Virus record (IMG/VR): IMGVR_UViG_2802429237_000003
Location: 1-40,233 of that record
Source of the DNA: a virus
Taxonomy: Duplodnaviria > Heunggongvirae > Uroviricota > Caudoviricetes
Direction: 5' to 3' (one strand)
Length of the DNA stretch: 40,233 nucleotides
A program made the translations under genes and the position numbers. The notes under the pieces were generated by a model. That model was not told where the DNA came from and searched no databases. It was given only the letters and a program-made list of their open reading frames with translations. This document shows, piece after piece, positions 1,307 through 32,200 of the stretch (position 1 is its first letter; each line of letters starts with the position of its first letter).

Positions 1307-3763
1307 TTAAAAATCAACCGGATTCGGGATCAGTTTTTGCCAGATTGCTGAAACGTATTTTGCCTGGTGACGGGCGTCATCAAGTGCATTATGGCGCTCA
1401 CCTTCGAATGGAATATCCATTCTGGCATCAAAGTCTATGGCTTTTCCTAACTCAACGATTGTGCGTACATCTCGATCGTTGTAGTAACGCCACGGGCAGG
1501 GGATCCCCTGCCGTTCGTATGAACGGCGCAAAATCGTGTTGTCGAAGTTGGCTCCATTTCCCCAGACCTGAACAAAAAATTCACCGGAGTTTTCGTCGAT
1601 AAATTCCCGCAATTGTAACAGTGCATCATCTAACGGGATTTCATCGGTCATAATGGCAGATTGCGCTTCGCGTGATTGCTTAAGCCACCATTTAATGGTG
1701 TCCCGATCAATGACTCCGCCAGCAGTTTCCAGATCGATAGTCTTACTAAATTCCGGTCCCATATCTCCGGTTTGCGGATCGAAAAAAATTGCACCTATTG
1801 AGATGATCGGGGCATCAGGATTTTTTCCCATGGTTTCAAGGTCGATCATTAGATGGTCACACGTCCTGCTGGTGGATGTGATTTCGTGATGACCGTTCAC
1901 CTTAATTGAGTGATCTGCCGCCTCGCCAGTTTCATTATCGCTGGCGTGGTCCTGAGCGCTGCCAGCATTCTCCTTGTGTGGATGTTCAGCGCCTTCCATT
2001 TCCTCCGGATCATTTTCCTGAACTTCAACCTGATTCTCTTCATCGAATGTTTCCTGGTATGTTGCGTCGCCCATCACCGCGCCACAATCAGGGCAGTTGC
2101 CGTCACCGCTCTGACCGCAGGCGGTGCAGACTTTTTCCACTTCCTGTTGCGCCACTGGTTCAGGCTGTTTCGTTTCTGGCTCGTTTTGTAACGCATTTGG
2201 GCTGTTTTGTTCCGCTTTCTGGTCGTTCTGTTCCGATTCTTGCTGGTTCTGGTTTACAGAATCGCGGGTTTCAATTCCCTTCACCCATTTCGGATCATTC
2301 GGGTCGCTAATCCCTGCAACAAATTCTCCGCGAGAGGCAGCAAGCAGTTCAGCGGCGTCAGGCTGGTTGATATTGGCTGCCTGCATAATTTTGTTTACTT
2401 CGTCAGCGGTAACTTTTACCTGATTAACCGGATCTATCTGTGCCTGAGTATCCAGCGATTGCGTGTCCTGGCGATGTTCAGTTGTATCCGGCTCCATTGC
2501 TTCAGTCGTTGCCTGTTCATCTGCCATTGCGTCAGACGGTTGTGATTTTTCCTCATTATTTTTTTCTTCTTCTGTTTCGCGTTCAGCAGCCAGTTCGCGG
2601 TTAACTTCTTCCAGGATATCTTTTTCCGGTGTATGTCGTGCAGCAGTGAGAGTTTCCTCGGTAGGGTTCTCGTGATCAGTCTCCGTTAAGTGGGCGTTGA
2701 TATACTCCTGAAGGCGTCCCGGGTAGAGATAAAGTTCAGGGTGAGCACTTCGGATAAGTGCAAAAATAGCGGCACGGGAATAATCCAGAACACCCGGGGT
2801 TGCGCGAAGTGCTGCGGACCATTCTTTGAACGGACTTTCTTTCTTCCGGACGATTTCTTTTGCGCGACGATAAACGCTGCCCGGGATTTCATAAATATTA
2901 AAATCCATCGGAAGTGTGGCCGCTGCAATCTCCACATCCAGCGTATCGAAGGTGTGTACTAAATTCGGATTGCGATCGGTTTTGTTCCCTCCACCGGCAT
3001 TAGCACCGGAAGCCGTGCGGGTGATGCGTGAAACACGATTTCCTTTCATCCACTCTTTTGTCAGCAGACCGCGATCGGTGTAGTCAGCGCCCAGGTATGC
3101 TTCGAAAAAAGCAGTCATCAGTCCCAGGTCTGAATTACCAGGATTAGGGAAAACTTTGTCCGTGTCACGAACCAGTTTGTGGAGATCGCGAATTTCAAGC
3201 GGTTCGAGTTGCGCTGCTTTATTTGAGATGGCCAGCGCGGTAACGGCGGGAAGTTTTTCATCCTGTGCGTTATGTAATGCGCGCAGTTCGCCCCGCGAAA
3301 CGTGTGTGATCGGTTTTTCGCTGCCGTGCTGCGCCAGCCATCGAACAGGCAGAATCTGACCTGAAACCGGCAGGAGCATGTTCTCCTCAATCTCAGTCAT
3401 GTCTTCGCCGTTGACGTTGGTATTGTCAGTGCTGGCTGGTTTGTCCTGAACAGAGGGCGAGGGCGCGATAAGTACCATTGTGATACCATCTTCCCCGCCT
3501 TTTTCGTATCGGTTGCAGAATTCGGTATCAAACACGCCTTCCGGAGGAAGGTCATTCACAACGGGTAAATGGACGCGAACAGGTTTTTTAAAATCCTCTT
3601 CGTCAAATCCGGCATCGTCCATTGCGACAACACCGCGTGATATTGCAACCGATAATTTTTTTGCTGTGCGCCAGTAAAAACCGCCTTTAATCCCAAGACG
3701 TTTTCTGACTTTGTCATTTTTGGCTTCGTAATATAGTGCAATTTCTTCTTTATCAGCGCTCAT
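1307..3763 (-). CDS. large putative exonuclease (818 aa): N-terminal domain of unknown function, acidic linker with CxxC..CxxC zinc ribbon, C-terminal DnaQ-like DEDDh 3'-5' exonuclease domain
   Basis: C-terminal region has DLETMG ... WGNGANFDNTIL ... HNALDDA motifs matching the Exo I/II/III motifs of DEDDh exonucleases; SD GAGG 8 nt upstream of ATG at 3763. Confidence 0.75.
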   Translation of the reverse strand: MSADKEEIALYYEAKNDKVRKRLGIKGGFYWRTAKKLSVAISRGVVAMDDAGFDEEDFKKPVRVHLPVVNDLPPEGVFDTEFCNRYEKGGEDGITMVLIAPSPSVQDKPASTDNTNVNGEDMTEIEENMLLPVSGQILPVRWLAQHGSEKPITHVSRGELRALHNAQDEKLPAVTALAISNKAAQLEPLEIRDLHKLVRDTDKVFPNPGNSDLGLMTAFFEAYLGADYTDRGLLTKEWMKGNRVSRITRTASGANAGGGNKTDRNPNLVHTFDTLDVEIAAATLPMDFNIYEIPGSVYRRAKEIVRKKESPFKEWSAALRATPGVLDYSRAAIFALIRSAHPELYLYPGRLQEYINAHLTETDHENPTEETLTAARHTPEKDILEEVNRELAAERETEEEKNNEEKSQPSDAMADEQATTEAMEPDTTEHRQDTQSLDTQAQIDPVNQVKVTADEVNKIMQAANINQPDAAELLAASRGEFVAGISDPNDPKWVKGIETRDSVNQNQQESEQNDQKAEQNSPNALQNEPETKQPEPVAQQEVEKVCTACGQSGDGNCPDCGAVMGDATYQETFDEENQVEVQENDPEEMEGAEHPHKENAGSAQDHASDNETGEAADHSIKVNGHHEITSTSRTCDHLMIDLETMGKNPDAPIISIGAIFFDPQTGDMGPEFSKTIDLETAGGVIDRDTIKWWLKQSREAQSAIMTDEIPLDDALLQLREFIDENSGEFFVQVWGNGANFDNTILRRSYERQGIPCPWRYYNDRDVRTIVELGKAIDFDARMDIPFEGERHNALDDARHQAKYVSAIWQKLIPNPVDF

Positions 3764-3853
3764 TGATAAACCTCATAACCATTTTTAGGGTGAACAAGTC
3801 CCTGCCATTGCTGGCATATAAAAATGAAACCGGATATTTATTACGGTGCTGGT

Positions 3854-4045
3854 TTAAAGCCCTGCCGGGACTTCGTTATTATCCATGCGAATAACTTTAT
3901 CGACCGGATAACAGTTACCTGGAATTTTCTGTTCCGCTGCGGCAGCCATGCATTCTTTCATTGAACCATATATACCAGTAACCACATCAACCGGTTCGCC
4001 TGTATTAAGAAAAACAGTCAGGGTGAGAGCAACAGCAGTATTCAT
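3854..4045 (-). CDS. ydfD: YdfD-like small membrane protein (63 aa)
   Basis: Internal ATG of the track ORF 3854..4099 gives 63 aa starting MNTAVALTLTVFL (hydrophobic N-terminus); the ATG overlaps the dicB stop (ATGA); position and size match ydfD of the E. coli Qin dicB operon as I recall it. Confidence 0.55.
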   Translation of the reverse strand: MNTAVALTLTVFLNTGEPVDVVTGIYGSMKECMAAAAEQKIPGNCYPVDKVIRMDNNEVPAGL

Positions 4046-4230
4046 TGCCAGTCTCCTTTTGGCATCAGACGTAAACGAGCCAGCATTGAAACAATGCATA
4101 TTTGATTTAATAGCTCCCGTTCGTGTTTTCTCTTATTAATCGCATCTTCAGTAAATACAGGGTTACTGATTCTGACACCAATTTCAAAACAACCTTCAGA
4201 CGTATTGACGTTTGGTAATAACGTTTCCAT
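4042..4230 (-). CDS. dicB: cell division inhibitor DicB homologue (62 aa)
   Basis: Internal ATG of ORF 4042..4326 gives 62 aa METLLPNVNTSEGCFEIGV...CIVSMLARLRLMPKGDWQ, near-identical in my recollection to E. coli DicB; SD GAGGA 8 nt upstream; preceded on the same strand by a DicF-like terminator hairpin. Confidence 0.78.
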   Translation of the reverse strand: METLLPNVNTSEGCFEIGVRISNPVFTEDAINKRKHERELLNQICIVSMLARLRLMPKGDWQ

Positions 4231-4423
4231 TATCGCGTCCTCAACAATGAATTTTGTGATACGGTGCCTGGTGCCTCCAGGTGACGTTAACCAGTTAACA
4301 ATTAACGCCGGATACAGAGAACCCACCCATAAGAACCAATACGGAAGTCAACTGGCCTTTTTAACTGTTCCGCGTGCGCTGAGCCGCATTCACCGCATCA
4401 CAAAATTCACTTTAAAAAGGGCG

Positions 4424-4476
4424 GGTATCACAAGGGAACAAAGAACGGATACCCGCCAAAAGGTAATCAACATGGG
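4424..4476 (-). ncRNA. dicF: DicF-like small RNA (approximate ends)
   Basis: Minus strand reads ...TTTTGGCGGGTATCCGTTCTTTGTTCCCTTGTGATACCCGCCCTTTTT followed by AAAGTGAATTTTGTGATG..GGTGAATGCGGCT.AGCGCACGCGG, matching the 3' terminator and downstream leader of E. coli dicF-dicB as I recall them; 10-bp stem GGCGGGTATC/GATACCCGCC plus T-run; immediately upstream of dicB. Confidence 0.5.
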
Positions 4477-4820
4477 TTGTTGCAGCGGGGGTGTCACTCA
4501 GGCGTATGGTCAACCTGACAACCCGGTGTTATCTCGAGGAAAGGATAGCCTCGCCATACTTACCGCCGCGCCATTTCGCGGAGTGCTACAACCGGAAGCG
4601 CACGGTCGAATTAAATTTAACGACACCGTACAGTGAGACGAACTTCGCCGTGCGCTTTCGTGTTGTGTGCCTGCTTTTAACCACGTCAGGCGAGGTGGTT
4701 CCTGTTATTCCCCAACAACAAGAAATTTGTATAATCCGGATATCCCCAACAACGAGAAGAGTATGTAACGTGATAGTTGAGTTCTCAGCAGCAATGTAGG
4801 CAATCAAAGAAACTGCGGTA

Positions 4821-5225
4821 ATGGCAAAGGGTATTCTGAATGCCAAAACTCAAACTGAGATAAATTCCGCTGTCAGCGATATGCTTTCAAAACTTACGTC
4901 TGTTCAGTTTGAATGCGTATCGCTCATTGAGATGGTGCGCTCTTATCAGGAAGAAGCCGCATCTCTCAAAGCAAAAATTGCAGAGATAGAAGACTTTCAG
5001 CAACAGGCGGAAGGTTACAAACTTAACAAGCTTGATTCTGGAACTCTTGTGTATTCCAAGAAGCAATTTATAGGCGATACTGAGATAACAGTGCATCTTT
5101 GCCCACAATGTTTTGGAAAAAAGGTAATATCTGTACTGCAGCCAATGGAAATAATGCGCCTTGATGCTCATTTTCGTACTTTTTGCCCCGCCTGTAATAA
5201 TAAGTTCTGGATGAACTCAAGATAA
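4821..5225 (+). CDS. hypothetical protein with N-terminal coiled-coil-like region and C-terminal CPQC...CPAC zinc ribbon (134 aa); convergent insert in the leftward early operon
   Basis: Clean 134-aa ORF on the strand opposite to all neighbours; visibly AT-rich; protein-like composition while the antisense ORF 4887..5171 is low-complexity; weak SD. Confidence 0.45.
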   Translation: MAKGILNAKTQTEINSAVSDMLSKLTSVQFECVSLIEMVRSYQEEAASLKAKIAEIEDFQQQAEGYKLNKLDSGTLVYSKKQFIGDTEITVHLCPQCFGKKVISVLQPMEIMRLDAHFRTFCPACNNKFWMNSR

Positions 5226-5360
5226 TTAACTGTTTAAATAAGTTGGGACTATCCAGATTTTTAAAGAACGTGCCGGATGCTCACCCGTGTCCGGCGCACG
5301 CACTCCACCTGCCTCGTGGAGAACTCCTTAATTATCAACCTTAGTCTCGTTGGTTAACTA

Positions 5361-5579
5361 TTAACGCGGGTATGAAATCATTCTGGCAATGCTTAATGCC
5401 GCTGCTTTTTCCAGATTGGTGATATCCTGCTCCAGAGCGGACAGATTTTCAGCTTGCTTAGCCCTGGCTTCATTGGCCCATTTCAGGTCCTGCGCTGCCT
5501 TAATTTTCTGGCGCATCCACTCATAAAGTTCATCATCGGTATAGTCTGGCGCGATGATGACGGGTTCTCGTTTCTGCAT
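5361..5579 (-). CDS. ydfC: YdfC-like small protein (72 aa)
   Basis: 72-aa ORF with SD GAGG upstream; follows the ydfB-like ORF on the same strand; order and sizes (51/42/72 aa) match ydfA-ydfB-ydfC of Qin. Confidence 0.55.
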   Translation of the reverse strand: MQKREPVIIAPDYTDDELYEWMRQKIKAAQDLKWANEARAKQAENLSALEQDITNLEKAAALSIARMISYPR

Positions 5580-5608
5580 ACTGATTCCTCGCGGTGCTGT
5601 TTCGCTTA

Positions 5609-5737
5609 TCAGCCGTTAGATTTTGCCGAACTGGAAAGCGCCTGTTTAAACTCACTGAAGCTGAGAGCTTCTTCGCCTTCGGCAAGGCCTTCGAAGTATT
5701 CTTCGTAAGCCTTTTCCATGATTGCGTCGAAATCCAT
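5609..5737 (-). CDS. ydfB: YdfB-like small acidic protein (42 aa; below ORF-track cutoff)
   Basis: Hand-translated minus-strand ORF MDFDAIMEKAYEEYFEGLAEGEEALSFSEFKQALSSSAKSNG; its ATG lies 2 nt after the upstream stop (tight coupling); the two overlapping track ORFs 5533..5742(-) and 5594..5791(+) look non-protein-like. Confidence 0.5.
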   Translation of the reverse strand: MDFDAIMEKAYEEYFEGLAEGEEALSFSEFKQALSSSAKSNG

Positions 5738-5738
5738 A

Positions 5739-5894
5739 TCACTCACCTGAGTTTCTTTTCAGCCAGCGACGCGCGCCAGCTTCGGTTTTAAACGTTTTGC
5801 TTTTGGTATACGTCATCGCGGTGAACGTGCCGTCCTGGTTTGGAAACACGCCGTACACCAGAGATTCGTTGTTACCAAGATCGATAGTATCCAT
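5739..5894 (-). CDS. ydfA: YdfA-like small protein (51 aa)
   Basis: Internal ATG of ORF 5739..5972 with SD GAGGT gives 51 aa MDTIDLGNNESLVYGVFPNQDGTFTAMTYTKSKTFKTEAGARRWLKRNSGE, matching the size and, as I recall, the sequence of E. coli YdfA. Confidence 0.6.
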   Translation of the reverse strand: MDTIDLGNNESLVYGVFPNQDGTFTAMTYTKSKTFKTEAGARRWLKRNSGE

Positions 5895-6100
5895 GCTGAC
5901 CTCATTTCCCCTTAACGCCGGGGTAGCGGAACAAAAACCTGCTGCATAGTTAAAGTTGAACCCTGCCGTCATGTTCTTACGCCTCGGGCTGGCTACTTAA
6001 CCCCTGACCACTGCCTGGTAACTCGAAGTATTGCCCTGCATTTTGTGGGGTGGGGTGAGGGAATGAATTAAGTTTAGAAAAATGAACTTTTCAGGTCAAT

Positions 6101-6116
6101 GTTTTTTTATCAAAAC
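6101..6116 (-). promoter_or_regulatory. candidate operator (O_L-like) 16-mer GTTTTGATAAAAAAAC, read on minus strand
   Basis: Third copy of the GTTTTGAT-N4-AAAC motif found twice in the cI-cro intergenic region; lies between the repressor gene and the ydfA-like operon, next to a TTGACC -35-like hexamer. Confidence 0.35.
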
Positions 6117-6183
6117 ATTTTGAGCAGGCAGCTGTTAAGCCATCACCACGATGGCATACAGTTAATCAAATAGATGAGGTTGG

Positions 6184-6822
6184 TTAAATATCTTGTTGAA
6201 TTTTAAAGCATACACCCAATATGCAAGATAGATCATCCAGCATAATTGAAGGGTAGCGAGGATTCGTGGGGACTAAAAGAATATCCGGCCCTTCTATCTC
6301 CAGTTTACGAATGACAGGTGTTGTGGTCCCTTTGGGTAAGGCAAGGACAATATTTCCTGGTTGTGCGGTTCGATCGGGATCAACAAAAACTGTTGATCCA
6401 TTTGGGATGGAAACTCCCCCACCAGATGTTGACATACTGTCACTCTCTAGAACAACTGCAAAGGTATTGGCCGGGATTTCTCCGACAAGCTGCACACAAG
6501 AGGTTATTGAGGAATTTTTCATATAATCACTCCAGCTTGCTGCCTGCTGAAGTGATAGTAGCGGAACCGTTTTTATCGGCGGTAAAGATAGATCAAGCGA
6601 ATCACCTGTATTTAACTCTCCTCCATTAAGAAGCCAATTTTCGTTTACTTTCAATATCTTTGCCAGTGAACTTATGTAACGCGAGGACGGCGCTCCTCCA
6701 CCGTTCATCCATTGACTTACGGAGCCTTTTGATGCGCCAGTGGCATTGACAAGGTCTTTGCCTTTCAGGTTTAGCGCATGCATACGTTGGGTTATGCGTT
6801 CAGATATTGTTTGCTTGCTCAT
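6184..6822 (-). CDS. CI-like prophage repressor: N-terminal HTH, C-terminal S24 LexA-like self-cleaving peptidase domain (212 aa)
   Basis: N-terminal HTH signature (GKDLVNATGASKGSVSQWMNG) and C-terminal S24-like region; divergent from the Cro-like gene with a ~90-bp operator-containing intergenic region. Confidence 0.85.
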   Translation of the reverse strand: MSKQTISERITQRMHALNLKGKDLVNATGASKGSVSQWMNGGGAPSSRYISSLAKILKVNENWLLNGGELNTGDSLDLSLPPIKTVPLLSLQQAASWSDYMKNSSITSCVQLVGEIPANTFAVVLESDSMSTSGGGVSIPNGSTVFVDPDRTAQPGNIVLALPKGTTTPVIRKLEIEGPDILLVPTNPRYPSIMLDDLSCILGVCFKIQQDI

Positions 6823-6823
6823 G

Positions 6824-6839
6824 TTTTGATTTTAAAACA
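6824..6839 (+). promoter_or_regulatory. candidate operator O_R site GTTTTGATTTTAAAAC
   Basis: Imperfect 16-mer with inverted GTTTT/AAAAC ends, directly abutting the repressor start codon; repeated 45 bp downstream. Confidence 0.4.
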
Positions 6840-6855
6840 CAGATGGTTTTGTTTC

Positions 6856-6884
6856 TTGACTTTCTTTGGTTTTGATTATTAAAC
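6856..6884 (+). promoter_or_regulatory. candidate P_R promoter (-35 TTGACT at 6856-6861) overlapping second operator copy GTTTTGATTATTAAAC (6869-6884)
   Basis: TTGACT followed 15-17 bp later by an A/T-rich -10-like hexamer (TATTAA), ~30 bp upstream of the cro-like start; operator repeat overlaps the -10 region. Confidence 0.4.
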
Positions 6885-6913
6885 TTTTGGCGTTCAGTTT
6901 TATGGAGCGACTC

Positions 6914-7156
6914 ATGAAAAAATCAGAAGTATTAGGCTATTTTGGCGGAGTTGTTAAAACAGCCGCAGCTCTAGGAACGTCAAAAACCACAGTCAGCATG
7001 TGGGGGGAAGAGGTTCCGTGGAAATGGGCGTTGCTAATTCAGGCAGTCACTGCCGGGGCGCTCAAATATGAGTTACACATACCGACGGTTGTCATTCCCG
7101 GTTCTGATCATAATCCGCCTTCTAACCAAAGGGGGATTCATGAAAATCAAGCATGA
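6914..7156 (+). CDS. Cro-like / YdaS-like HTH regulator (80 aa)
   Basis: Start chosen at ATG 6914 with SD GGAG upstream; HTH-like segment GGVVKTAAALGTSKTTVSMWG; divergent from the repressor. Confidence 0.6.
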   Translation: MKKSEVLGYFGGVVKTAAALGTSKTTVSMWGEEVPWKWALLIQAVTAGALKYELHIPTVVIPGSDHNPPSNQRGIHENQA

Positions 7157-7565
7157 ACACATCCGCATGGCGATGGATGCCTGGGCGCATCCGGACGGCG
7201 AAAAAGTACCGGCTGCGAAAATTACCAAAGCGTATTTCGAACTGGGAATGACGTTCCCGGAACTGTATGACGACAGCCATCCGGAAGCCCTGGCTCGTAA
7301 TACTCAGAAAATTTTCCGCTGGGTAGAGAAAGACACCCCTGATGCGGTTAAAAAAATTCAGGCGCTGTTACCTGCTATCGAAAAAGCTATGCCACCTCTG
7401 CTGGTGGCCCGAATGCGCAGCCACAGTTCAGCCTATTTTCGGGAGCTGGTGGAGACGCGGGAACGATTGGTGAGAGACGCTGATGATTTTGTCGCAGTGG
7501 CGATCGCTGGTTTCAACCAGATGAATCGTGGTGGTCCGGCGGGAAATGCTGTGGTGATGCACTAA
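7140..7565 (+). CDS. ydaT: YdaT-like protein (CII-like regulator family; 141 aa)
   Basis: Internal ATG of ORF 7068..7565 with SD GGGGG upstream; size and MKIKHEHIRMAMDAWAHPDGEKVP N-terminus match my recollection of Rac YdaT; follows the cro-like gene as in Rac ydaS-ydaT. Confidence 0.55.
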   Translation: MKIKHEHIRMAMDAWAHPDGEKVPAAKITKAYFELGMTFPELYDDSHPEALARNTQKIFRWVEKDTPDAVKKIQALLPAIEKAMPPLLVARMRSHSSAYFRELVETRERLVRDADDFVAVAIAGFNQMNRGGPAGNAVVMH

Positions 7566-29289: not shown

Positions 29290-32200
29290 ATGAGTGTGGC
29301 GACATTACGTGAACTGATTATTAAAATCTCGGCAAACTCCCGGTCATTCCAGTCAGAGATCTCCCGGGCTTCGCGTATGGGGCAGGATTACTACCGCACC
29401 ATGCAGAACGGAAGCCGACAGTCCGCTGTTGCATCCCATGAAATGCGGCGTGCACTGGCAGAAGTGACGGATCAGATAAATACAGCCAAATCTTCGGCAC
29501 TGAACATGGCGGGGGCATTTGCCGGGGCTTTTGCTACCGGTCATCTTATTTCTCTCGCCGATGAGTGGAATTCAGTCAATGCCCGTCTGAAGCAGGCCTC
29601 ACAGTCCAGTGATGATTTTCAGGTATCACAACGTGAATTAATGGCAATCAGCCAGAGAACGGGGACGGCTTTTTCTGATAACGCCAGCCTTTTTGCCCGC
29701 TCTGCAGCTTCCATGCGGGAGTATGGCTACAGTTCTGAGGAGGTACTGAAAGTCACCGAGGCGATCTCCACGGGCCTGAAATTATCCGGTGCCAGTACAG
29801 CAGAAGCCAGTTCGGTGATCACGCAGTTCAGTCAGGCACTGGCGCAGGGAGTGCTGCGCGGTGAAGAATTTAACTCTGTGAATGAGAACGGCGATCGTGT
29901 TATTCGTGCGCTGGCTGCGGGAATGGGCGTTGCCCGTAAGGATCTGAAGGCCATGGCAGATGACGGAAAGCTGACCGCCGATAAGGTTGTTCCTGCACTG
30001 ATTAGTCAGCTTGGGGCGTTACGTGATGAATATGCAGCAATGCCTGATACGGTTTCATCCTCTGCAACCAAAGTTGAAAACGCCTTTATGGCCTGGGTTG
30101 GTGGTGCGAACGAGGCAAGCGGAGTGACGAAGACACTCACCGGAGTGTTGAATGGTGTTGCAGGCAATATTGATACCGTGGCGGCTGCAGCTGGTGCACT
30201 GGTTGCCGTCGGGGTAGCCCGATATTTTGGCAATATGGCGTCGTCTGCTGGATCTGCAACTGCCGGATTAATTACTGCAGCCAGAAACGAAGTAGCTCTT
30301 GCGGAAGCGCAGCTCCGGGGGACGCAGATAGCAACCGCCAGGGCGCGTGCGGCGGTTTATCGTGCGCAACAGGCGGTCGCGGCTACCCGTGGTACTGAAA
30401 GACAGGCAGCCGCAGAAGCGAAATTGGCTGCTGCCCAGGCGTCACTTACCCGTAATATTGCGGCCAGAACAGCGGCACAGACAACGCTGAATACTGTCAC
30501 GTCAGTGGGGAGTCGTCTGTTAAGTGGGGCACTGGGACTGGTTGGGGGTGTGCCGGGACTTGTCATGCTGGGGGCCGCAGCCTGGTACACAATGTATCAG
30601 AATCAGGAGCAGGCCAGAGAATCTGCACGCCAGTATGCCGCAACAATCGACGAAATTCGCCAGAAAACGTCGGCAATGTCGCTTCCTGAAGCGTCAGATA
30701 ATGAGGAAAAGACGCGACAGGCACTGAAGGAGCAGAACAGGTTAATTGACGAGCAGAAAAGTAAGATTAAATCCTTACAGGAAAAAATTGCTGGCTATCA
30801 GTATGTGCTGGCAAACCCGGGCTGGACAACCGATAACGGTTTTATGATTAACCACATGACGTCGGTAAAAACTGTCACAGAAGGGCTTGCCGAAGCAACA
30901 AATCAACTGGCAGTTGAACAGTCTCGCCTCACTCAAATGCAGGGCAAAGCGCAATCCATTCAGGATGTGCTTGCCGGGCTGGAGGAGCGACGGGTGGCGT
31001 TGATCCGTCAACAGGCAGCGGAACAAAACAAAGCGTATCAGTCCCTGTTGATCATGAATGGGCAGCATACCGAGTTTAATCGCCTTCTCGGGCTTGGTAA
31101 TGAATTACTTCAGCAGCGACAGGGGCTGGTGAATGTACCGTTACGGCTACCACAGGCAACTCTGGATGATAAACAGCAGACCGCACTGAATAACAGCAAG
31201 CGCGAACTGGCTCTGTCCCGCCTTAAGGGGGAAGCGCGTGAGCGTGCCCGACTGGGCTATGCTGCGGATGATCTCGGCTTTGTGGGAGAGGCGTATCAGA
31301 CAGCCAGACAGAATTATATCAATAACTCACTGGATGCCTGGCGAAATAACCAGGCAAATAAACCCAAAGCGCATAAAAAGACCGAAGCGGAAAAAACAGA
31401 AGATATTTATAAACGGCTGATTAAACAGCAGAAAGAACAGATAGCACTGGCAGGGCAGAATACTGAACTGGCTAAGATGAAATATCAGGTCAGTCAGGGC
31501 GAATTATCAACCCTGTCAGAAGCGCAGAAAAAAACGCTTTTGCAGAATGCAGCACTCATCGACCAGAAAAAGATTCGTGAGCAGCTTGCTGCGTATGAGA
31601 GCAGTCTGGCGGACAGTAATGCCAGTGCCCGGGCATCTGACGAAGCGCAGTTGCTGGGATATGGTGAAGGCTCACGGATGCGTGAACGACTCCAGGAAAT
31701 GTGGAGTATCCGGCAGGCGTTTGAGCAGAAAAATAACGAGCTGCTGAGACAGTATCAGGCCGGAGAAATTGAAGAAGCCCTGTGGAAACAGGAGAAAGAA
31801 CTGAATAAAAAATATCTGGAAGAGCGTCTCAGCGATCAGCAGGATTATTATGTAAAGGCCGATGCTTTACGCAGTAACTGGAATGCCGGACTCCAGGAGG
31901 GACTGACCAACTGGGCAGACAGTGCCACCGATTATGCTTCACAGGCGGCAGATGCTGTCGTTTCCACGATGGACGGGCTGGTATCAAATATTTTCGATGC
32001 ACTGGCCGGGAATGTTGTGGAGTGGAGGAACTGGGGGAGTTCAGTTCTCCGGGAAGTTTCAAAAATTCTGATGAATGCGGCCATTGTTAACGGACTGAAG
32101 TCACTCTCCGGTGCCGGAGGGTGGCTTGGTACGGTCGGCGGATGGATTTCGGGGGCGGTGGCAAACGCAAAAGGTGGTGTTTACACATCGGCAAATCTGA

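Follow-up and report, generated by a model that had tools for sequence, protein, structure and literature searches.

The closest described counterparts of the locus reported here are the sieB module of phages P22 and lambda and the antiphage protein Rip1. In P22, the antisense RNA sas blocks the translation of SieB and spares the phage its own exclusion system, according to an earlier article (PMC12197685). It works via the Esc/SieB translational switch. The sequence of P22 sas is printed in Table 2 of a 2026 RNA-seq paper, which describes the RNA as seen only in infected cells (PMC13397905).

Rip1 is described as harmless when alone (Patel et al., 2026, Nature 651:1060, as cited in a review, PMC13434031). 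The review states that phage escapers map to portal or small terminase, that 12 Rip1 monomers ring an 11-mer small-terminase ring, and that the N-terminal amphipathic helix forms a pore, with premature cell lysis. For Pseudomonas, it locates the Rip1 gene in a P. aeruginosa prophage, with the small-terminase gene on one side and the large-terminase gene on the other (PMC13434031).

The insert and its neighbourhood

In the window (the whole stretch of 40,233 nucleotides that was analysed), an opposite-strand insert interrupts the leftward early operon of a lambdoid prophage. Its borders are sharp and its length is 591 bp (4679-5269, + strand), as delimited by alignment to phage Tritos and to a gene-bearing E. 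coli prophage. This cassette consists of a promoter/leader, a cargo gene and a 3' border; Tritos and the majority of E. coli with both flanks lack it and have ~29 nt of unrelated filler in its place. The original prediction had placed here a 134-aa open reading frame (4821-5225, + strand) opposite to every neighbour, and it was right in this: the reading frame is present and all neighbouring genes lie on the minus strand. With names taken from homologous annotated E. coli loci, these are an exonuclease, a DUF1482 gene, dicB (4042-4230), ydfC (5361-5579), ydfB, a DUF1391 gene (ydfA) and a cI-like repressor (6184-6822). A conserved core gene of the dicB region was what the prediction had named as one finding that would speak against it. 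Of 5426 complete E. coli genomes, 78 carry the insert and 4597 the flanking region, so the gene is accessory and not part of a dicB-region core.

Two further statements held in part. The insert had been called visibly AT-rich, and its GC content is 41% against 47-52% in the immediate flanks; the difference is modest, however, and equal AT-richness is seen elsewhere in the region. The insert had also been located between ydfC and dicF. The ydfC side was correct, but the other neighbour is not a canonical DicF: an Rfam search of window positions 3500-7200 gave no DicF match at E<=1. The DicF slot is occupied by a divergent, sRNA-like element with a hairpin and a T-run (~4420-4476, - strand). It has the flanks, the GGCGG...CCGCC terminator frame and the T-run of DicF, but the body and the seed (CCCAUGUUGAUUACCUUUUGGCGGGUAUCC...) are replaced. 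Its hairpin folds with z = -4.1, and it occurs in 204 of the 5426 E. coli genomes, where it carries no annotation. In the untranslated stretch between this slot and dicB there is a weak, sub-threshold Rfam match to STnc100 (4253-4407, - strand; 33.8 bits against a gathering score of 47, E 7e-5). Another opposite-strand addition to the same early-left operon was seen in E. coli KFu019 (locus L003), where a small plus-strand gene annotated as "ECs_2282 family putative zinc-binding protein" (6993-7193) takes the place of ydfB and ydfA.

The cargo gene

The encoded protein had been described as matching no recognisable family. This did not hold, as it matches both phrog_1244, a PHROGs family with no assigned function, and the Rip1 family. 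Pfam, NCBIfam and PADLOC searches of the protein returned only sub-threshold noise (SLATT_5, Zn-ribbons). A search with the sequence alone (phmmer) reached the Rip1 chain of PDB 9oox with E 6.8e-7, and the family profile did so with E 1.4e-17, aligning profile positions 6-151 with Rip1 residues 16-160 of 164; BLASTP against the deposited protein, HK446 gp37, gave 2e-10. The AlphaFold2 model built from the family alignment (pLDDT 92) has a long helix at residues 2-63 followed by a beta-rich domain with four cysteines. A Foldseek search of the PDB with this model placed 9oox (HK446 Rip1 with the T6 small terminase) at the top, with E 1.7e-6 and TM 0.68, and nothing else below E = 0.7. The predicted model thus has the long N-terminal helix and compact C-terminal beta domain of Rip1, and the gene forms a single-gene prophage accessory locus. 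The CPQC and CPAC motifs noticed earlier are both present; C94, C97, C122 and C125 are invariant in 28 sequences of the family and align with the C..C / C..C of HK446 Rip1. A DksA/TraR-like factor, with coiled coil and C4 finger, was also considered and rejected, since there was no family match and the fold searches gave Rip1 only. Sequence and predicted structure make the protein a homologue, over its full length, of Rip1, a defence protein characterised by experiment. With tblastn, the search also reached the P. aeruginosa Mu-like phages JBD30, DMS3 and D3112 orf25, a locus consistent with the Pseudomonas Rip1 position given in the review (PMC13434031). These results extend the Rip1 defence family to a common Qin/Rac-type position in E. 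coli prophages.

We found 57 homologues in Escherichia, Citrobacter, Enterobacter, Klebsiella, Kluyvera, Salmonella, Edwardsiella, Izhakiella and Symbiopectobacterium. Nearly all of them start 17 residues earlier than the 134-aa reading frame, with a conserved MIAELSAAMxAIKETAxLAK, and these 17 N-terminal residues are conserved in 27 homologues. The annotated start of the E. coli alleles is a GTG that corresponds to window position 4770, which gives an ancestral Rip1-family frame of 151 codons (4770-5225, + strand, ending in TAA at 5223-5225). In the window, codon 10 of this frame is a TAG (4797-4799), and other alleles have TCG or GCT there. Three assemblies share the TAG allele, and one of these matches the window at 100% identity over 6.4 kb; a sequencing error is thereby ruled out. 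The 134-aa gene of the original prediction thus exists as a reading frame (4821-5225, + strand), but it is the remnant of a 151-aa gene and would at best yield an N-terminally truncated product by restart. No clear Shine-Dalgarno sequence precedes its ATG at 4821, and Met18 is not a conserved residue of the family. At most a protein without the 17 N-terminal residues could be made, and its function is doubtful because of this; the intact N-terminal amphipathic helix, the pore-forming part of Rip1, is absent in the window copy. Judged from its sequence, the window gene is probably an inactivated member of the Rip1 family.

The alleles are mosaic. Compared with window 4770-5225, the ETEC4073 allele (locus L005, 3091-3546) and its like are almost exact matches in the promoter and the C-terminal half, and ~70% identical in the helix-coding half. 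Alleles of the RM11911 type (locus L006, 3090-3602; homologues P0006 and P0007) keep the helix and have a different C-terminal domain. This pattern points to recombination between the pore-forming and sensor parts. Mosaics of helix and C-terminal sensor domain, together with gene loss in several lineages, fit a gene engaged in an arms race.

The borders of the cassette and their other cargoes

In comparisons across genera, the proteins are only ~50% identical, whereas ~100 nt before the start codon and ~23 nt after the stop codon are conserved at the nucleotide level. The 5' element (4668-4769, + strand) is homologous to the sieB promoter/leader of P22, lambda, HK620 and HK446. A blastn search of phage records with its 112-nt consensus hit the P22 feature "sieB: promoter" (29690-29720; sieB RNA start at 29727), the region just upstream of sieB in lambda, and the regions upstream of hkaP in HK620 and of rip1 in HK446. 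The original prediction had described two direct repeats around a TATAAT. Both repeats were found on the plus strand, 34 nt apart, repeat 1 at 4710-4724 (CCCCAACAACAAGAA) and repeat 2 at 4744-4758 (CCCCAACAACGAGAA), with the TATAAT at 4730-4735; the two matches in the window compare with 0.02 expected, and none of 100 shuffles reached two. In the alignment, the window TATAAT falls on the -10 end of the annotated P22 promoter, repeat 1 lies over the -35, and the P22 start falls on the base before repeat 2. From homology with the mapped P22 sieB RNA start, we infer that plus-strand transcription starts near 4743, the base before the second CCCC, so that repeat 2 would form the 5' end of the mRNA. 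The proposal that the gene has its own promoter is thus supported by the P22 alignment. A simple promoter/terminator scan of the region found nothing above shuffles, and it did not call this sieB-type promoter because the -35 is poor.

Elements of the P22 type contain CCCCTACAG twice and those of the window type CCCCAACAA twice, which indicates that the two repeats evolve in concert. An Rfam search with the 5' element gave no known RNA family, the weak STnc100 match being elsewhere. Other readings of the repeats were discarded. A sponge for or target of GcvB, as in the AgvB-type anti-sRNA, was suggested by the CA-rich repeats; AgvB, at the PR' moron site, is unrelated. On inspection there was also no convincing match to alternative sigma-factor or response-regulator boxes.

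The published P22 sas is the reverse complement of the 5' element, from the sieB start codon to the GCCTG..CAGGC hairpin. By sequence homology, the minus strand of the window element is the counterpart of this antisense RNA. A stem-loop A, UUCUUG...CAGGAA with UGUUGGGGAAUA in its loop (4699-4724, - strand), is predicted in the antisense RNA of both the window and P22, and repeat 1 lies in its loop and 3' arm. Among 31 diverse elements, five of its pairs change on both sides, a level matched by 1 of 500 shuffles. U.G is the most frequent pair at one position; read on the plus strand it would be a C.A mismatch, so the pairing is possible on the minus strand only. The antisense fold energy is no better than that of shuffles (z -0.15) and two of the three antisense helices are invariant and hence uninformative, which makes the structural evidence moderate. 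Since sas contains the complement of both repeats, pairing of both its G-rich motifs with the CCCC-rich mRNA 5' end is conceivable and would explain why the repeats evolve in concert. The shared borders link an antisense-RNA mechanism of self-immunity from 1993 (sas) to a defence protein of 2026.

On the 3' side, the cassette has features that are absent from P22, lambda, HK620 and HK446. An 18-nt inverted repeat brackets the cargo (AATCTGGATATCCCCAAC ... GTTGnGGATATCCAGATT in related cassettes), with compensatory changes at 7 positions. In the window its left arm is AATCCGGATATCCCCAAC (4733-4750) and its right arm GTTGGGACTATCCAGATT (5242-5259), which is imperfect relative to the left one; the two arms have three mismatches. 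Among the non-Watson-Crick positions of the repeat, C.A occurs 76 times and G.T 18 times, and C.A corresponds to a G.U wobble on minus-strand RNA. The inferred mRNA begins within the left arm, and the complete stem is therefore possible only on the early, minus-strand transcript.

Directly outside the right arm, NGCTCTTTAACAA was found on the minus strand in 73 of 89 distinct cassettes, a count that is inflated because one of the collecting patterns included part of the motif. We take this to be boxA, whose consensus in rrn operons and lambdoid nut sites is GCTCTTTAACAA; the match is exact over 12-13 nt. In the window the motif is degenerate (GTTCTTTAAAAA, 5258-5269, on the early-transcript strand), with a match to GCTCTTTAACAA at 10 of 12 positions and 2 mismatches. 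The 3' border is absent from P22, lambda, HK620 and HK446, where N lies just upstream. On this basis, we propose that boxA may let Nus factors shield the early transcript from Rho during its passage through the untranslated antisense cargo.

In prophages without N, PL (TTGACA, operators GGTACATTATGTACC) lies ~100-150 nt from the 3' border (~5560-5660 in locus L014; ~4100-4230 in PhiR29_2, L258). With PL so near, the early transcript would run for >1 kb untranslated before the first early gene. This stretch comprises a leader, a hairpin, boxA, the antisense cargo and the sas region, and the leader before boxA is a conserved segment of ~70 nt (...GGCAGGACGCCCACGAAGTAGCCGCC...). On the plus strand, window positions 5206-5262 form an imperfect hairpin with arms at 5206-5229 and 5234-5257 that are 71% complementary, followed by TTTTT. 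It could act as the plus-strand terminator of the E. coli version, which lacks the GC-rich terminator (AGCGTCC...GGGCGCTTTTTT) found after boxA in other genera.

Scans of IMG/VR with either border yielded >120 loci each. A Rip1-like gene was present in 76 of the 111 distinct cassettes with both borders, and the others carried unrelated open reading frames; the downstream neighbour was on the other strand in 85 of 89 distinct cassettes. A stricter pattern applied to genome contigs gave 11 loci, informative for taxonomic range only (Enterobacter, Citrobacter, Kluyvera, Kosakonia, Edwardsiella, Izhakiella and others). In Enterobacterales prophages, at least six further uncharacterised cargo families lie between the same two borders: a protein of 150-170 aa that has two predicted transmembrane helices and follows a proline-rich mini-ORF (phrog_6315), a protein of 148-151 aa (phrog_5286), a secreted protein of 171 aa with a weak LprI match (phrog_7681), a protein of 93 aa (phrog_8894), and proteins of 98 and 104 aa. 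None of these non-Rip1 cargoes had a match above the Pfam gathering threshold or a PADLOC match. The two-gene phrog_6315 cargo was seen behind the sieB-type 5' element in loci L046, L048 and L053 and in ~20 other IMG/VR loci. Its mini-ORF encodes ~27-35 aa (...HMPxxKRPPAPPK...), and some loci have a second such mini-ORF after phrog_6315.

We tentatively suggest, with somewhat less than even confidence, that the sieB promoter and sas together form a portable expression platform that silences itself and carries interchangeable antiphage cargo, namely SieB, Rip1-like proteins and at least five uncharacterised families (phrog_6315, phrog_5286, phrog_7681, phrog_8894 and the 98-aa protein). In prophages without N it would carry its own antisense boxA against Rho, and an 18-bp long-range stem round the cargo, perhaps an RNase III site that frees the sas-like RNA. 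Our literature search found no description of an interchangeable-cargo platform, an antisense boxA or a long-range stem of this kind. The combination of 5' element and boxA offers a simple DNA signature for harvesting candidate defence genes with no assigned function, and the boxA idea gives a testable account of how antisense morons avoid Rho-dependent polarity on the operon they interrupt. The cargo-swapping platform is a more interesting lead than the window gene itself.

Alternative readings, proposed mechanism and comparison with known systems

The original prediction had offered an exclusion or defence moron as one explanation of this arrangement, and the Rip1 homology, the sieB promoter homology and the accessory distribution all support it. 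We consider it likely that the feature is a sieB-type moron cassette with a Rip1-family antiphage gene as its cargo. For the window copy, a serious competitor, to which we give a little less than an even chance, is that it is the decaying pseudogene of a cryptic prophage and makes no functional protein, so that only its non-coding borders may matter. The recurrent TAG speaks for this, and so does the O103:H2 12009 allele, which has an independent 1-bp deletion (a frameshift) and is annotated with 114 aa; together they indicate that Rip1-like copies are decaying. The boxA and inverted repeat of the window are degenerate as well, and neighbouring integrases in related loci are frameshifted or have internal stops. 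On the other hand, the other 134 codons are undamaged and do not differ from those in alleles that lack the stop, a restart 21 nt past the stop is possible, and the promoter/leader is fully conserved in the window copy. The prediction had also offered an antisense-controlled regulator of the dicB module. The cassette might then act on the downstream division inhibitors by convergent transcription or through the Zn-ribbon protein itself, as its place between ydfC and the DicF-slot element, antisense to a transcript that must reach dicB, would allow. This seems very improbable to us. The Rip1-like cassette lies between ydfC and the DicF slot in E. coli; in prophages of Citrobacter, Edwardsiella and Enterobacter, and in PhiR29_2, the same gene with its borders is directly left of cI and PL, and in Salmonella it is between ydaT and the replication genes, in prophages without dicB/dicF. 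Moreover, most dicB-carrying prophages lack the gene, and its predicted fold is that of Rip1 and not of a DNA- or RNA-binding regulator. By analogy with P22, antisense control would run the other way, with the early transcript silencing the moron.

The 18-nt inverted repeats (YYYYAAC ... GTTRRRR) could instead be recombination sites of an integron- or MITE-like mobile cassette and not RNA elements. They do bracket the cargo with compensatory changes, the cassette occupies different positions in different prophages, and the ends of the arms resemble what we take to be integron core sites. We nevertheless regard site-specific mobility as highly unlikely and rejected the attC-like reading, as no recombinase travels with the cassette, the order of the core sites is opposite to that of an integron cassette, and the right arm is missing from lambda, P22, HK620 and HK446, which do have the 5' element. 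The excess of C.A over G.T fits pairing in minus-strand RNA, and ordinary homologous recombination at the conserved borders is enough to account for cargo swapping.

If the feature is a sieB-type moron with Rip1-like cargo, it may work as follows. In a lysogen, the cassette promoter would express the Rip1-like protein against the repressed early-left operon. As published for Rip1, this protein would remain inactive until the small terminase or portal of a superinfecting phage has assembled into ring-shaped oligomers; a ring of the Rip1-like protein would then form around these oligomers, its N-terminal amphipathic helices would open a membrane pore, and the cell would die before the phage matures. 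When the resident prophage itself enters the lytic cycle, the leftward early transcript would cross the cassette in antisense and give a sas-like RNA. By pairing with the 5' end and the ribosome-binding region of the cargo mRNA, this RNA would turn translation off and confer self-immunity. At the point where the antisense transcript enters, the consensus boxA of related cassettes would probably recruit Nus factors against Rho termination of the untranslated early transcript.

The comparison with known systems shows both likenesses and differences. The 3' border of most related cassettes carries, on the early-transcript strand, an exact boxA like that of rrn operons and nut sites, but this boxA travels with the cassette and not with PL, and no N gene or boxB is evident there. 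The HK620 gene hkaP ("putative superinfection exclusion protein") is a Rip1-family homologue (30% identity, E 7e-13); it occupies the sieB slot, is preceded by the same 5' hairpin element and is convergent with N. Unlike the window gene, hkaP is intact, has direct repeats of the P22 type, and lacks the right inverted-repeat arm and boxA.

HK446 Rip1 (gp37, PDB 9oox) shares with the window protein homology of sequence and fold over the full length, including the long N-terminal helix and the CxxC...CxxC C-terminal domain. Both are encoded by single-gene accessory loci of prophages, and HK446 rip1 lies behind the same 5' element. Identity is only 22-25%, however, codon 10 of the window copy is a nonsense codon, and the window subfamily (phrog_1244) starts ~10 residues later. 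The window gene is found between ydfC and the DicF-slot element, and HK446 rip1 between ral and N.

The sieB/esc/sas module of P22 and lambda (Ranade and Poteete, 1993, as cited in PMC12197685; P22, NC_002371) has a homologous promoter/leader with the same GCCTG..CCAC..CAGGC..GTGG hairpin stretch and two concerted direct repeats around the -10, and it likewise runs rightward inside a leftward early operon. The window cassette differs in its cargo, which is Rip1-like with no SieB Pfam match, in its repeats, which are CCCCAACAA and not CCCCTACAG, and in that no Esc-type internal product is evident in its gene. Relative to P22, lambda, HK620 and HK446, cassettes of the window type add a 3' border composed of an inverted-repeat arm and an antisense boxA.
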